From NCBI GenBank assembly GCA_910580185.1, contig CAJTWC010000003.1, positions 34,304 to 98,303 of the forward strand: a DNA stretch of 64,000 nt, given 5' to 3'. Positions 23,730 through 61,583 of the stretch are shown piece after piece. This DNA is from an uncultured Bacilli bacterium. GTDB lineage: Bacteria > Bacillota_I > Bacilli_A > RF39 > UBA660. A program made the position numbers and the translations under genes. The notes under the pieces were generated by a model, which saw only the letters and a program-made list of their open reading frames with translations, was not told where the DNA came from and did no database searches. Positions within the stretch are counted from its first letter, which is position 1. Each line of letters starts with the position of its first letter.

Positions 23730-23834
23730 ATATTTTTAGGGGATTTTTAAAATTTTTGACTAACAATTAATTAGGAGGCAATAGAAACTAGCTTTGTTTT
23801 CCATCTTACTAGAATAGGAAGGTGGGTGATATTT

Positions 23835-23924
23835 ATGAGGTTTAGATTTGAAATAAAATTTAGTCCAAAATTAATTATCATATTATTACTTGTAATAGCC
23901 CTAGTGTTAATTACTAGTATATAA
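23835..23924 (+). CDS. 29-aa hydrophobic peptide (MRFRFEIKFSPKLIIILLLVIALVLITSI), candidate type I toxin-like small membrane protein
   Basis: Strong SD AAGGTGG 9 nt upstream; single predicted TM helix; stop codon abuts a 16-bp bidirectional terminator hairpin; missing from the ORF track because of its size. Confidence 0.4.
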   Translation: MRFRFEIKFSPKLIIILLLVIALVLITSI

Positions 23925-24005
23925 GAAAAACAGAGTTAGTGACAAACTAGCTCTGTTTTTCAATAAACAAAACATATGGAAAACAACTAGTAATGTTGCT
24001 TCCTT
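23918..24005 (-). ncRNA. candidate convergent antisense small RNA overlapping the terminator of the 29-aa ORF
   Basis: Minus-strand promoter with -35 TTGAAT (plus 24036-24041), 17-nt spacer and -10 TATAAT (plus 24013-24018); transcription runs into the bidirectional terminator, giving an RNA of about 85 nt. Confidence 0.3.
23925..23961. terminator. bidirectional intrinsic terminator (16-bp stem, GACAA loop)
   Basis: GAAAAACAGAGTTAGT / ACTAGCTCTGTTTTTC pair perfectly apart from one G-U pair. Confidence 0.6.
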
Positions 24006-24098
24006 CATTTATATTATATATTAAATTTTGTAGTTATTCAATTATTTTATCTTTCTTTTTTTTAAATAATGATATATAATTAAATCATAGGAGGATAT

Positions 24099-32224: not shown

Positions 32225-32230
32225 ATAAAT

Positions 32231-32409
32231 GCCTAAAGGTATCGGGCGCTAGCACATTTAACCCGCTAAGATTTAATAGGGAATCAGAATCAATAGTGGT
32301 GTTCATGCTTAAATTTATTTAAGAAGTCTAAAACTATTGTGGGATGCCCACCTGCGAGAATTGCAGGTTTATCTTGTTAGCAAACGACCCTTTGGGTTCT
32401 TTTTTTTTA
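32231..32409 (+). ncRNA. candidate stand-alone structured small RNA of about 180 nt, identity undetermined
   Basis: The locally GC-richer segment lies between a strong promoter and an intrinsic terminator (ACGACCC-UUU-GGGUUCU followed by U9). It contains adjacent hairpins GUGGG-AUGC-CCCAC and CCUGC-GAGAAUU-GCAGG. There is no long ORF, and the downstream gene has its own TTGACG/TAACAT promoter. Confidence 0.35.
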
Positions 32410-53345: not shown

Positions 53346-53489
53346 TTGGCTAAAAACATTAGTGAAAACAAAAAGAAAAAGAAAAAATTCAAAATAAATT
53401 GGAGTAAAGTTTTAGTTTGGTTTGCGCTAATCGCAATGGTCGGATCAGCTATAATAGCAATACTATCCCCTATCATGTATAATAACTAG
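53346..53489 (+). CDS. 47-aa small membrane protein (TTG start), hypothetical
   Basis: AGAGGTG RBS 6 nt upstream of the TTG; poly-Lys N-terminus followed by one TM helix; not in the ORF track. Confidence 0.3.
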   Translation: MAKNISENKKKKKKFKINWSKVLVWFALIAMVGSAIIAILSPIMYNN

Positions 53490-59506: not shown

Positions 59507-59600
59507 CTTAAAACCCTCCTTTTAAGTAATATTATTATAAATGGAATTATAATAATTTGCAATATTTTTGTTTATGATATATCATTATCTTGGTGATTTT

Positions 59601-60377
59601 ATGAATGAAGAAAACTTAATTACTTACTATAATAAATTTAACGAAGATAAAAGATTAACTCATCGTCATGGTATTGTAGAATATGTAACCGCTATGAAAT
59701 ATATTCATGATTTATTAAAAAAATACAAAAATCCTAAAATATTAGACGTGGGAGCTGGTACTGGTAGGTATTCGGTTACATTAGCAAATGAAGGTTATGA
59801 TGTAACTGCTATCGAGCTTGTAAAACATAATTTAATGACGTTAAAATCAAAAAACAGCACTGTTAAAGCACATTTAGGTAATGCTACTAACCTTTCCTTA
59901 TTTAAAGATAATTCGTTTGATGTGGTGCTTTTATTTGGGCCACTATATCATTTAATTAATAAAGAAGATAAATTAAAAGCTATAATAGAAGCTAAAAGGG
60001 TTTTGAAAAAAGATGGTGTTATATTAATTAGTTATTATATGAATGAATATGCAATAATTACCCATGGATTCAAAGATAATAATATATTGGATGCAATTAA
60101 AAACAATGAAATTGATGAAAACTTTCATGTTACGCCTAAAGAAACCGACCTTTATAGCATGGTTAGATTAGAAGATATTAATGAATTAAAAGATTTATCA
60201 GAATTAAATAGAATTAAAATATTATCCCAAGATGGCCCTTCTGATTATATTAGGCGGGTAATTAATAAAATGGATGAAAAAACTTTTAATACGTATATAA
60301 AATACCATCTGTCAACGTGTGAAAGGCCTGAACTTTTAGGCGCATCAAGTCATGTTTTAGATATATTAAAAAAATAA
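59601..60377 (+). CDS. class I SAM-dependent methyltransferase
   Basis: Motif I ILDVGAGTGRYSVTLA; the start could be further upstream (the ORF-track start is 59568; 59574 is another option). Confidence 0.7.
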   Translation: MNEENLITYYNKFNEDKRLTHRHGIVEYVTAMKYIHDLLKKYKNPKILDVGAGTGRYSVTLANEGYDVTAIELVKHNLMTLKSKNSTVKAHLGNATNLSLFKDNSFDVVLLFGPLYHLINKEDKLKAIIEAKRVLKKDGVILISYYMNEYAIITHGFKDNNILDAIKNNEIDENFHVTPKETDLYSMVRLEDINELKDLSELNRIKILSQDGPSDYIRRVINKMDEKTFNTYIKYHLSTCERPELLGASSHVLDILKK

Positions 60378-60380
60378 TAT

Positions 60381-60408
60381 TTACATAAATATAATATTTT
60401 TGTATAAT
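60381..60408 (+). promoter_or_regulatory. sigma70-like promoter (-35 TTACAT, 16-nt spacer, TG-TATAAT) driving a short plus-strand RNA
   Basis: Read directly. Confidence 0.45.
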
Positions 60409-60415
60409 TTAATTA

Positions 60416-60503
60416 GTGAGAGCACCTAACTTAAGGTTAGTAGCTTTCCTTAAATTTGTTTAGGGAAAAAGCGTAACTCCCCCCTGGGTATAGTTACGCT
60501 TTT
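60416..60503 (+). ncRNA. candidate ~88-nt small RNA convergent with the 26-aa peptide gene
   Basis: Starts at the left inverted repeat, contains the hairpin CUAAC-UUAAG-GUUAG, and ends at the bidirectional terminator at 60466-60504. Confidence 0.3.
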
Positions 60504-60504
60504 T
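60466..60504. terminator. bidirectional intrinsic terminator
   Basis: AAAAAGCGTAACT-loop-AGTTACGCTTTTT. Confidence 0.55.
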
Positions 60505-60507
60505 CTT

Positions 60508-60588
60508 TTATATTTTAAAAATTAGTATTGCTAATAATAAAATTAAAAGGATAATTATTACTCTTTGAAACTTAGTTTCACTTTTCAT
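60508..60588 (-). CDS. 26-aa hydrophobic peptide (MKSETKFQRVIIILLILLLAILIFKI), candidate type I toxin-like small membrane protein
   Basis: AGGTGGTG SD 6 nt upstream; single TM helix; stop codon abuts the bidirectional terminator; sequence-similar to the 29-aa peptide at 23835. Confidence 0.4.
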   Translation of the reverse strand: MKSETKFQRVIIILLILLLAILIFKI

Positions 60589-60752
60589 AAACATCACCAC
60601 CTTTCTATTCTTCATAAAAAGACGGAAAGCTAAACTAACCCACTATTAGGTGTTCTCATATTTATTATTAGATAAAACTTTTAAATATCCCCTAAAATTA
60701 AATAAAAAAATTAAAAAATACAAGAATTATTTAATATCTTGTACTTTTTTTA

Positions 60753-61583
60753 TTATCTATAATATTTATAACGTTCATTAAGAGGAACCATTTTTTTGAT
60801 TGATTCTATCTCATCTTTTAATATTAACTCGCTTTCTGGAACTAAAAACTCATTTAATCTATATTCTTTATACATTTTTTCATCATCACTATAAATCATT
60901 TTTGGTATTCTTACCACATTAAAATCATTCAAGAAATAATTATAAAAAGTTTCATATATTTTAAATTCAGATGTAGTTATAGTTTTAGGCAAACGTTCAA
61001 CCCTATGATAGCCTAAATATTGAACGTATATATCATTTAAATAATATAGCATTTGACGATATTTATAATCATCATAATATATATCTAAAGTGCGCTCATT
61101 ACTTTGATTTTTTAAATATAAGATATTATAGCTTTCTTTATCTAATAAATTTACATCTTTACCAAAACCTTTAGTAAAATATTTATTTTTATAGCAATTA
61201 TTAAAAAATGTCAATAAATTCTTTTTTAATAAGGTAATAGGGTATTCACCAAAACGACTTTCAAACCTAATTTCAGAATTAACTCTACTTATACATTCAA
61301 GAATATAATCTCTACTTGCATCAGTAATATATTCTTCATCACGCTTATTTCTTAGTATTAGTTGTTCTTTATCCATATTTATATCTATTTCATTGACATA
61401 GAAAATGTCTAAAAATAATTCGGTAACAGGATTAATATCATGCCCTCCAATTCCAAATGGACAAGAGTAATCAATAGGCCTTCCACTTGGATCTAAAAAA
61501 CCAATAAACTTTGCTGCAAAATTAAAATTATCTGGTGTAATTTCAGTATCGTTGATAACATTCTTATTAAATGATAATGTCAT
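60753..61583 (-). CDS. hypothetical protein
   Basis: ORF of 276 aa. Confidence 0.4.
   Translation of the reverse strand: MTLSFNKNVINDTEITPDNFNFAAKFIGFLDPSGRPIDYSCPFGIGGHDINPVTELFLDIFYVNEIDINMDKEQLILRNKRDEEYITDASRDYILECISRVNSEIRFESRFGEYPITLLKKNLLTFFNNCYKNKYFTKGFGKDVNLLDKESYNILYLKNQSNERTLDIYYDDYKYRQMLYYLNDIYVQYLGYHRVERLPKTITTSEFKIYETFYNYFLNDFNVVRIPKMIYSDDEKMYKEYRLNEFLVPESELILKDEIESIKKMVPLNERYKYYR

Follow-up and report, generated by a model that had tools for sequence, protein, structure and literature searches.

A candidate type I toxin-antitoxin-like cassette with a shared terminator and matching RNA 5' hairpins on the chromosome of an uncultured Bacilli bacterium

The 64,000 nucleotides (nt) of DNA analyzed here, called the window in the following, come from an uncultured Bacilli bacterium (contig CAJTWC010000003.1) and have a G+C content of 26%. 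Between the 3' end of a methyltransferase gene (plus strand, stop codon at 60377) and a gene for a hypothetical protein of 276 amino acids (aa) (minus strand, 60753-61583) the window holds a small cassette, called locus 2, with a 26-codon open reading frame (ORF) on the minus strand and a convergent gene for a small RNA (sRNA) on the plus strand. Judged by sequence and comparison, the cassette is probably a chromosomal type I toxin-antitoxin-like module in which the sRNA would act at a terminator shared by the two genes, and it belongs to a family outside Pfam, NCBIfam and Rfam. The comparison gives a conserved ORF, an occluded Shine-Dalgarno sequence (SD), a promoter, a structured sRNA, perfect complementarity of the two RNAs in the terminator only, and complementarity between the 5' and 3' ends of the mRNA. 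The "inverted repeats" around the ORF are the predicted matching 5' hairpins of the two RNAs, HP1m of the mRNA and HP1s of the sRNA, and not the ends of a mobile element.

The peptide MKSETKFQRVIIILLILLLAILIFKI is a candidate membrane toxin. Its mean Kyte-Doolittle hydropathy is 3.9 over 15 aa and a single hydrophobic helix is predicted; the charged residues are N-terminal, and there is neither a PXXXG(C) motif nor a charged C-terminal tail. The gene stands alone, has its own SD and terminator, and at 26 aa its product is below 60 aa. Upstream starts in the same frame would lengthen the peptide to 28 or 35 aa, and the gene index has no record of the 35-aa version; no upstream ATG is found in the orthologue L005, which makes the 26-aa start the conserved one. 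A comparison of the two such peptides of the window, in four versions, to Pfam and NCBIfam gave no family and, at E <= 10, only a chance viral family in Pfam; a full-text literature search by peptide motifs found no relevant paper. A small hydrophobic stand-alone ORF and an adjacent antisense RNA gene complementary to its mRNA are the generic marks of a type I locus; the first is present here and the second is predicted.

In the leader the SD is kept in all relatives of the cassette. Its conserved core, AGAAAGG(U)GGUGAU, is a nearly full complement of the 3' end of 16S rRNA, and in the minimum free energy (MFE) and centroid folds it is buried in a 12-bp hairpin (Table 1). An equivalent hairpin is present in the MFE and centroid folds of all six 5' untranslated regions (UTRs) tested, which come from three subfamilies. 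The predicted toxin mRNA is ~200 nt long (60659 to ~60462) and folds with z = -3.5. Some 25-45 nt upstream of both putative toxin mRNA starts in the window lies a G-rich box, TTAGGGGAT(A/T)TTT followed by AAAA. The window has just two exact copies, at 60683-60695 (minus strand) and 23736-23748 (plus strand), one upstream of each toxin gene, and the box recurs upstream of the relatives L005, L013 and L026 and as a variant in L011. Since the toxin promoters have no consensus -35, the box may be the site of a regulator or of an alternative sigma factor.

The antisense promoter is strong and conserved and the toxin promoter is weak. With 11 of 12 consensus positions the former outscores all other promoter-like sites in the scanned 2.2 kb, and it is kept as TTTACA/TTGnnn-17-TATAAT, followed by TTAATTAGTGA, in L005, L013, L014 and L024. 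The sRNA is predicted by RNAfold to fold with -36.2 kcal/mol (z = -5.7; 0 of 200 shuffled sequences as stable), and the sRNAs of the relatives fold alike (z = -3.4 to -6.6). HP1s is nearly invariant in the four closest locus-2-type relatives, several positions being different in L024. The stems of the sRNA, HP1s included, hold G.U pairs which are A.C mismatches on the opposite strand, and this favours the sRNA strand. A second small hairpin in the linker, HP2, was considered from covariation seen by eye in four sequences; it is absent from the MFE and centroid folds and we do not claim it.

An A-run before the stem of the terminator and a T-run after it give a U-tract in both directions. By construction the two RNAs are complementary nowhere but in the terminator, over ~45 nt, and this overlap stops 2 nt short of the stop codon (stem to 60505, stop at 60508). 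The stem varies among the relatives; the loop, in the sense of the mRNA, is ACCCAGGGGG in the four closest and has ACCCA in all five. When the locus was compared to Rfam at E <= 10, and the whole window at the gathering threshold, the locus gave only sub-threshold matches driven by the terminator, the best being the SR6 antitoxin (~21.4 bits, threshold 55) and the Enterococcus A9 antisense RNA (29 bits, threshold 49).

Most of this layout had been proposed in a first-pass annotation of the window made from the letters alone. The minus-strand ORF at 60588..60508, with its SD and 6-nt spacer, is read directly in the sequence. The bidirectional terminator, placed at 60466-60504, is a perfect 14-bp stem at 60465-60505, and the RNAs are complementary over it as proposed, perfect complementarity being limited to it. 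The plus-strand promoter is present, with its boxes, spacer and start corrected to TTTACA-17-TATAAT at 60380-60408 (TTACAT-16-TATAAT from 60381 in the annotation), and the plus-strand RNA ending at the same terminator is predicted at ~94 nt (60416 to ~60510) and not at ~88 nt.

Table 1. Features of the cassette (locus 2) and of its paralogue (locus 1) in the window
Feature	Position	Strand	Remarks
sRNA promoter	60380..60408	+	-35 TTTACA, 17-nt spacer, -10 TATAAT; 11/12 consensus positions
Candidate antitoxin sRNA, ~94 nt	60416..60510	+	5' hairpin, U-rich linker, terminator hairpin; ends inferred
Left arm, sRNA 5' hairpin HP1s	60416..60449	+	paired 60418-60448; alignment and fold
Shared bidirectional terminator	60465..60505	both	perfect 14-bp stem 60465-60478/60492-60505
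Terminator 5' half and loop, AAAGCGUAACUAUACCCA	60485..60502	-	partner of HP1m; sRNA terminator 3' half would bind the same site
ORF, 26 codons and stop	60508..60588	-	MKSETKFQRVIIILLILLLAILIFKI, candidate membrane toxin
SD AGGTGGTG, within extended SD AGAAAGGTGGTGAT	60595..60602	-	6 nt before ATG; kept in all relatives
SD-sequestering hairpin, 12 bp	60597..60625	-	CCGUCUUUUUAU / GAAGA / AUAGAAAGGUGG; MFE and centroid
Right arm, toxin mRNA 5' hairpin HP1m	60624..60659	-	gapped alignment; weakly stable as hairpin
HP1m loop and 3' half, UGGGUUAGUUUAGCUUU	60626..60642	-	complementary to 5' half and loop of the mRNA's own terminator (60502-60485)
Putative toxin promoter region	60660..60695	-	holds conserved G-rich box TTAGGGGATATTT (60683-60695)
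Paralogous cassette, locus 1	23736..24041	+	collinear alignment, nhmmer E ~1e-6; opposite orientation to locus 2
Locus 1 ORF	23835-23924	+	29-aa peptide MRFRFEIKFSPKLIIILLLVIALVLITSI; SD context GAATAGGAAGGTGGGTGATATTTATG as in locus 2
Locus 1 terminator	23925-23961		follows ORF
Locus 1 sRNA	~24007 down to ~23920	-	promoter TTGAAT (24041-24036), 17-nt spacer, TATAAT (24018-24013)

The further claim that a toxin-like peptide gene and a convergent sRNA share this terminator is supported, at the level of sequence, by purifying selection on the peptide, by the conserved promoter and two-hairpin RNA, and by the paralogue. The parallel which had been drawn with a locus at 23.8 kb is borne out: locus 1 is a collinear paralogue in opposite orientation. 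Relatives were found first with a degenerate DNA pattern that covers SD and start codon and then with two profile searches of a collection of 5.8 billion proteins. This gave ~15 further cassettes with the same layout in Clostridium-like and Erysipelotrichaceae metagenomic contigs (gut and rumen Firmicutes). L005, from the metagenome-assembled genome (MAG) of an uncultured Clostridium sp., L013, L014, L024 and L011 are like locus 2; L007, L015 and L026 are like locus 1; and L004, L006 (two copies 2 kb apart), L020, L021 and L027 form a rumen Erysipelotrichaceae group with the peptide motif MTKREFSQFIIILLLFLVV.ILLLK. The peptide is 41 aa in the cassette L009 and 25-30 aa in the others. What the relatives share is the extended SD in a local hairpin and a strong convergent promoter for a two-hairpin RNA which ends at the toxin terminator. 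The codon changes are 3 synonymous and 0 non-synonymous between L013 and L014, and 12 synonymous and 4 non-synonymous between L004 and L021, where 15 third-position differences stand against 2 second-position differences. Judged by their codons, the peptides are under purifying selection.

The pattern scan also returns unrelated genes, because the SD core nearly complements the 3' end of 16S rRNA. L003/L012 and L008/L010 were rejected as family members on this account; they are unrelated genes with a near-perfect extended SD (ATAGAAAGGTGGTGATATTTATG). The SD-only matches of the first pair lie at 7913-7935 in L003 and 739-761 in L012. One of these SD-only genes occurs in Clostridium sp. ASF356 and also in a viral contig; a Woesearchaeota MAG carries the other. 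The extended SD core alone does not define the family. A downstream match of L011 to its own 5' UTR was not used either; past the ORF this contig is GC-rich with no visible promoter, and it may be chimeric.

In L013, which is ~80% identical to the window in DNA and 85% in the methyltransferase protein, the cassette is at the same site beside the methyltransferase gene and has diverged about as much as the flanks. L007 and L026 are syntenic with each other, and the cassettes of L005, L014 and L024 lie in different gene neighbourhoods. L013 (3001-3300) and L014 (697-1000) are identical in the left half of the cassette and diverge from the middle of the ORF, by synonymous changes only, the right flanks being different; this suggests recombination between paralogous copies or a chimeric assembly. 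Multi-copy type I loci usually behave in this way, and transposition is not needed to explain it. Several short-read contigs end in or just after a cassette (the 3' ends of L001/L002 and of L015-L019), which together with the L013/L014 split suggests that a genome may have multiple similar copies which recombine or confuse the assembly. Comparison of the cassette by blastn to 72,556 plasmids and 50,697 phages gave nothing or AT-rich, promoter-like chance matches, and 2.9 million viral contigs held nothing similar. As to single contigs, the two diverged cassettes of the rumen Erysipelotrichaceae MAG L006 are at 180-514 and 2426-2762, and at 394-2749 in L021 a cassette is found beside an IS110-family transposase and a SymE-like gene.

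The ORF could also code for an ordinary, non-toxic small membrane protein, with a cis-antisense RNA and an SD-occluding leader that tune its expression. The peptide is a candidate toxin, belongs to no known family and has a short hydrophobic segment; many small membrane proteins of Gram-positive bacteria are described in the literature, and the cassette is stably inherited at a core chromosomal site. The gene is, however, alone with its own promoter and terminator, and it has no conserved protein partner across the genomes, since the neighbourhoods are unrelated from one to the next. Several diverged copies are found per genome (two in the window, and two within 2 kb in L006). Type I toxin loci typically pair a strong antisense promoter with a weak one for the toxin, hide the SD and have a strongly folded mRNA, and the cassette fits this design. 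An ordinary membrane protein is therefore, in our opinion, unlikely.

If the module is of type I, the sRNA most likely acts at the 3' end of the mRNA, because the perfect complementarity lies solely across the terminator. The 3'-overlapping antitoxins of Gram-positive bacteria form such a 3'-end duplex, after which the mRNA decays or is locked. The sRNA could instead act in trans with its 5' domain on the ribosome-binding site (RBS) of the toxin, in the style of SprA1/SprA1AS or of the DRa/DRb repeats of par, in which case the shared 5' sequences would be anti-SD elements. In favour of this, the ORF is not part of the overlap; the same is true of Fst/RNAII and SprA1/SprA1AS, whose RNAs interact elsewhere than in the overlap (PMC8594479). 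Both arms also carry CACCU and CUUUCC, which resemble pieces of an anti-SD. In locus-1-type loci the 5' UTR scores 44-45 against the sRNA, compared to 22-25 +/- 4 for shuffled sequences, and 0 of 200 shuffles reach it. Against it, the non-overlapping part of the sRNA and the region from -45 to +30 of the toxin gene are no more complementary than shuffled sequences in any of the 7 loci tested (locus 2 and its orthologues). Moreover, the similarity of the arms ends exactly at the real anti-SD of the mRNA (CCGUCUUU in the mRNA, CCUUAAAU in the sRNA), and a stable hairpin in the sRNA hides the bases that could serve as its anti-SD. The model was rejected because the complementarity of sRNA and RBS is no better than that of shuffled sequence in seven loci, and we regard it as very unlikely.

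The imperfect ~35-bp inverted repeats reported in the first-pass annotation at 60416-60449 and 60624-60659 are real. A gapped alignment of the first with the reverse complement of the second has 28 identities over 34/36 nt, and the local score is 40 compared to 19.7 +/- 3.0 for shuffled sequences, none of 300 shuffles reaching 40. A gapless repeat finder missed the arms because of two indels. The remark in the annotation that both RNAs begin with nearly the same sequence is also correct, and this is a trait of the whole family. The first 12-35 nt of the sRNA resemble, in the same sense, the start of the toxin mRNA in each of the subfamilies examined, and the sequence is specific to the subfamily; in the Erysipelotrichaceae group the resembling segment of the sRNA is an internal hairpin. 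Cognate pairs of arms have a mean similarity score of 25.7, whereas 58 cross-subfamily pairs have 13.2 +/- 2.5 (maximum 21). The two arms have also changed in parallel: compared to the window, both arms of L024 have CACC changed to AACT and TAGC to TTGC, and compared to locus 1 both arms of L026 have CCAT changed to CTC. The loops of the arms are different and yet each is conserved across species, UGGGU in the mRNA arms and CUUAAGG in the sRNA arms, which argues against simple gene conversion. Among the transitions that separate the arms, the direction that would preserve G.U pairing on the toxin strand prevails by 29 to 10, a bias which is only suggestive because the loci are related.

These data bear on a reading in which the arms have no RNA function, being kept alike by template switching or gene conversion, or serving as recombination sites for inversion of the segment with ORF and terminator. 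Parallel substitutions in both arms are what gene conversion would give, and as the arms sit just downstream of the two promoters, an inversion would swap the promoter that drives the toxin gene. Wholesale conversion would, however, have erased the difference between UGGGU and CUUAAGG, and the G.U-keeping bias, although from non-independent loci, points to a constraint at the RNA level. The arms are poor substrates for recombination, because they are only ~78% identical and have indels; no recombinase gene is adjacent to the cassette, and all relatives are found in one orientation. We give this reading a still smaller chance than pairing of the sRNA with the RBS.

The proposal in the annotation that the cassette is a miniature inverted-repeat transposable element (MITE), a small non-autonomous transposon carrying a toxin-like gene between terminal inverted repeats of ~35 bp, can appeal to the repeats that do flank the ORF, to cassettes of one subfamily in different neighbourhoods (L005, L014, L024), to the Erysipelotrichaceae copy adjoining an IS110 transposase and to the tendency of short-read contigs to break in or near cassettes, but it has almost no chance of being right, since the homology of the cassettes takes in both promoters and so reaches well past both arms, which places the arms inside the conserved unit and not at its termini; the site is the same beside the methyltransferase gene in L013, and L007 and L026 are syntenic too; there is no evident target-site duplication at the cassette; the plasmid, phage and viral collections hold nothing like it; and the two arms are set apart by indels and by loops that are specific to each arm and kept from species to species. 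The further copies of the repeats that the annotation would have expected are not found in the 64-kb window, where arm matches with at most two mismatches number 6 compared to 4.8 expected, only the two arms themselves being real.

A possible role for the arm of the mRNA is given by its complementarity to the other end of the same molecule. The segment UGGGUUAGUUUAGCUUU has a complementarity score of 26 with the mRNA's own terminator (16.3 +/- 3.4 for shuffled sequences; 5 of 300 reach it), and it resembles the terminator hairpin in the sense of the sRNA (TGGGTATAGTTACGCTTT) with a score of 20 (11.2 +/- 2.0; 1 of 300). HP1m thus resembles the sRNA-sense terminator and is for this reason complementary to the 5' half and loop of the terminator of its own mRNA. 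The complementarity is found in 8 of 8 loci of the locus-2 and locus-1 types (1-19 of 300 shuffles reach the score), and the likeness to the sRNA-sense terminator in 5 of 5 locus-2-type loci, where the match follows the stem sequence of each locus. All members of the locus-2 group keep UGGGU in the loop of the 5' hairpin and ACCCA in that of the terminator; pairing of the two would explain why the loop is conserved although its complementarity to the sRNA is automatic. In locus-2-type loci the duplex in cis, with -17 to -20 kcal/mol, is better than the duplex in trans with the sRNA (-11 to -17), whereas in locus-1-type loci the duplex in trans is equal or better and the 5' UTR is significantly complementary to the sRNA.

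Folding of the mRNAs is consistent with such a contact. When they are truncated after the terminator loop, 12-18 nt of the arm pair with the 5' half of the terminator in the MFE folds of 7 of 7 loci, with the SD hairpin intact in at least 6 of the 7. Toxin-strand transcripts that read through to the complement of the arm would form a 5'-3' panhandle in which 26-28 of the first 35 nt are paired (six constructs, from locus-2-type, locus-1-type and L009). It should be noted that in locus 2 and its relatives the terminator comes before the complement of the arm on the toxin strand. In the Erysipelotrichaceae group the hairpin past the stop codon has no U-tract in the direction of the mRNA, and the complement of the arm is the mRNA's own terminator. 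Three full-length mRNAs of this group were folded, and in their MFE structures the 3' end pairs with 12-27 of the first 35 nt; the differences between the arms in the 12-nt 5' segment are G.U-compatible; according to these folds the 5'-3' panhandle would be the natural state in this subfamily. A search with accessibility-corrected RNAduplex was dropped, as it gave huge interior loops and long-range duplexes without meaning.

The model that we propose is the following. A weak non-consensus promoter on the minus strand would give the ~200-nt mRNA with HP1m, the 12-bp hairpin burying the SD, the 26-codon ORF and the terminator, and the peptide made from it would be a membrane-active toxin. The near-consensus promoter on the plus strand would give the ~94-nt RNA with HP1s, a U-rich linker and the terminator in the opposite sense. 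The sRNA would meet the terminator of the mRNA by a loop-loop contact and form a duplex of ~40 bp at the 3' end, which would mark the mRNA for decay or lock it. HP1m would be a cis copy of the binding surface of the antitoxin, its UGGGU loop facing ACCCA, and by docking on the terminator or pre-empting it would close the mRNA or favour read-through. This fold-back would compete with the antitoxin for one site and could oppose the formation of the terminator. That the cassette is made up of three related hairpins (HP1m, the shared terminator, and HP1s as a copy of HP1m) and that HP1m is a built-in mimic of the antitoxin, with a three-way contest between the cis mimic, the terminator and the trans antitoxin, is a tentative idea, and we think it more doubtful than probable. 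If true, the outcome of the contest would settle whether transcription terminates or reads through, and whether the mRNA is closed and inert or open. To our knowledge no type I system of this design has been described.

Several points weigh against the module as proposed here. That the two RNAs are transcribed, that the peptide is toxic, and that the RNAs make the contacts proposed, with the effect proposed, is what we infer from sequence. The hydrophobic core of the peptide is just ~15 residues. A consensus scan of the toxin strand finds no sigma-70-type promoter or consensus -35, and for this reason the start of the toxin mRNA (~60659-60652) comes only from the alignment with relatives. Neither HP1m nor the whole 5' UTR stands out by its stability (z = -0.5 to -1.6). 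With -22 kcal/mol the terminator hairpin outweighs the duplex of HP1m with the terminator (-19.7 kcal/mol), so that the fold-back would need co-transcriptional timing, 3' trimming or a kissing contact. The statistics rest on ~15 related, non-independent loci, mostly from metagenome assemblies. The weakest point of the model is that pairing at the terminator leaves the copying of HP1m by HP1s unexplained, and concerted evolution of close inverted repeats, free of function, would also give arms that are alike.

Among known systems the layout of the cassette is closest to par (Fst/RNA II) of Enterococcus and other Firmicutes. The par locus has convergent promoters, a bidirectional terminator whose stem-loops can start the contact between the RNAs, a 5' stem-loop sequestering the SD, repeats at the 5' ends of both genes and a small hydrophobic toxin (PMC7472228). 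The cassette resembles it in the convergent promoters (that of the toxin a putative one), the shared bidirectional terminator, the SD-sequestering 5' stem-loop (here 12 bp, 60625-60597), the small hydrophobic peptide and the repeats at the 5' ends. The repeats of par are direct in the DNA, which makes its RNAs complementary across the start site, whereas those of the cassette are inverted, which makes its RNAs alike; there are no direct DRa/DRb repeats here and no complementarity at the start site above that of shuffled sequence. The peptide also differs from Fst in having neither PXXXG(C) nor a charged C-tail, and there is no match to Fst in Pfam or to any family in Rfam.

The antitoxin SprA1AS of Staphylococcus aureus works through a 5' domain complementary to the ribosome-binding site. 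SprA1/SprA1AS is similar to the cassette in that the overlap of antisense RNA and mRNA is limited to the 3' end of the latter and leaves out the ORF (PMC8594479), and different in the 5'-domain pairing with the toxin RBS, which was looked for here in seven loci and is absent. TxpA/RatA, BsrG/SR4, BsrE/SR5 and YonT/SR6 of Bacillus subtilis are Gram-positive systems with convergent, 3'-overlapping antitoxin RNAs like that of the cassette. These antitoxin RNAs trigger decay of the mRNA. Their antisense RNAs overlap the ORF (PMC8594479), whereas here the terminator alone is shared, and the toxins are unrelated. The best sub-threshold matches of the locus in Rfam are RNAs of this type; their scores are far below the thresholds and come from the terminator alone.

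In two Gram-negative systems, hok/Sok and AapA1/IsoA1, a 5'-3' fold-back or long-distance interaction keeps the full-length mRNA inert. The likeness to the cassette lies in the occluded SD and in an mRNA 5' end complementary to the 3' end (computed in our case). The antitoxins of these systems overlap the 5' part of the mRNA, whereas the sRNA of the cassette is on the 3' side; the toxins are unrelated, with no match to Hok in Pfam. The type I toxins of Clostridioides difficile are ~34-53 aa long with charged C-termini, and many are encoded in prophages or next to CRISPR arrays. The modules of this organism (e.g., CD2517.1/RCd8) likewise combine a small hydrophobic toxin with an antisense RNA; among Clostridia, type I modules have been validated by experiment in this organism only (PMC6563280). 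No sequence similarity to them was detected through Pfam, NCBIfam and Rfam, and the cassette differs in being located in a core chromosomal region. A search by peptide motifs and in the text of T1TAdb, to which it was limited, found no report of a type I system in Erysipelotrichaceae. With a par-like or 3'-overlap layout, a fold-back element and no match to a named family, the cassette is filed as a new type I family.

The family, whose members are found in gut and rumen Firmicutes, adds a compact candidate toxin type of 25-30 aa. It escapes automatic annotation: genes of this type are absent from the databases, their ORFs being uncalled, or are called with false N-terminal extensions which translate the leader. 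The co-evolving 5' hairpins and the 5'-3' complementarity are an unusual and testable RNA design, and UGGGU/ACCCA, the SD hairpin and the shared terminator are elements which can be mutated to study how a toxin mRNA is silenced when the antisense RNA contacts the terminator only. For the scanning of genomes, inverted repeats around a small ORF can be elements of RNA structure and not transposon ends.

The methyltransferase gene (59568-60377, plus strand) ends 3 nt before the -35 box of the sRNA promoter and has no terminator of its own, so transcription probably reads through the sRNA and stops at the terminator of the cassette. The sRNA could then also come from the 3' UTR of the methyltransferase mRNA. 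The arrangement is the same in L013. On the other side of the cassette, the gene for the 276-aa hypothetical protein has no Pfam domain on record and is missing from the syntenic contig L013, which indicates an insertion or deletion difference right beside the cassette. A 6S RNA at 32227-32402 (plus strand; Rfam RF00013, 65 bits) is the sole Rfam family above threshold in the window and confirms that this is a core chromosomal region. The only other small hydrophobic ORF of the window preceded by an SD, with GAGGTG upstream, is one of 47 aa at 53346-53489 (plus strand), MAKNISENKKKKKKFKINWSKVLVWFALIAMVGSAIIAILSPIMYNN.

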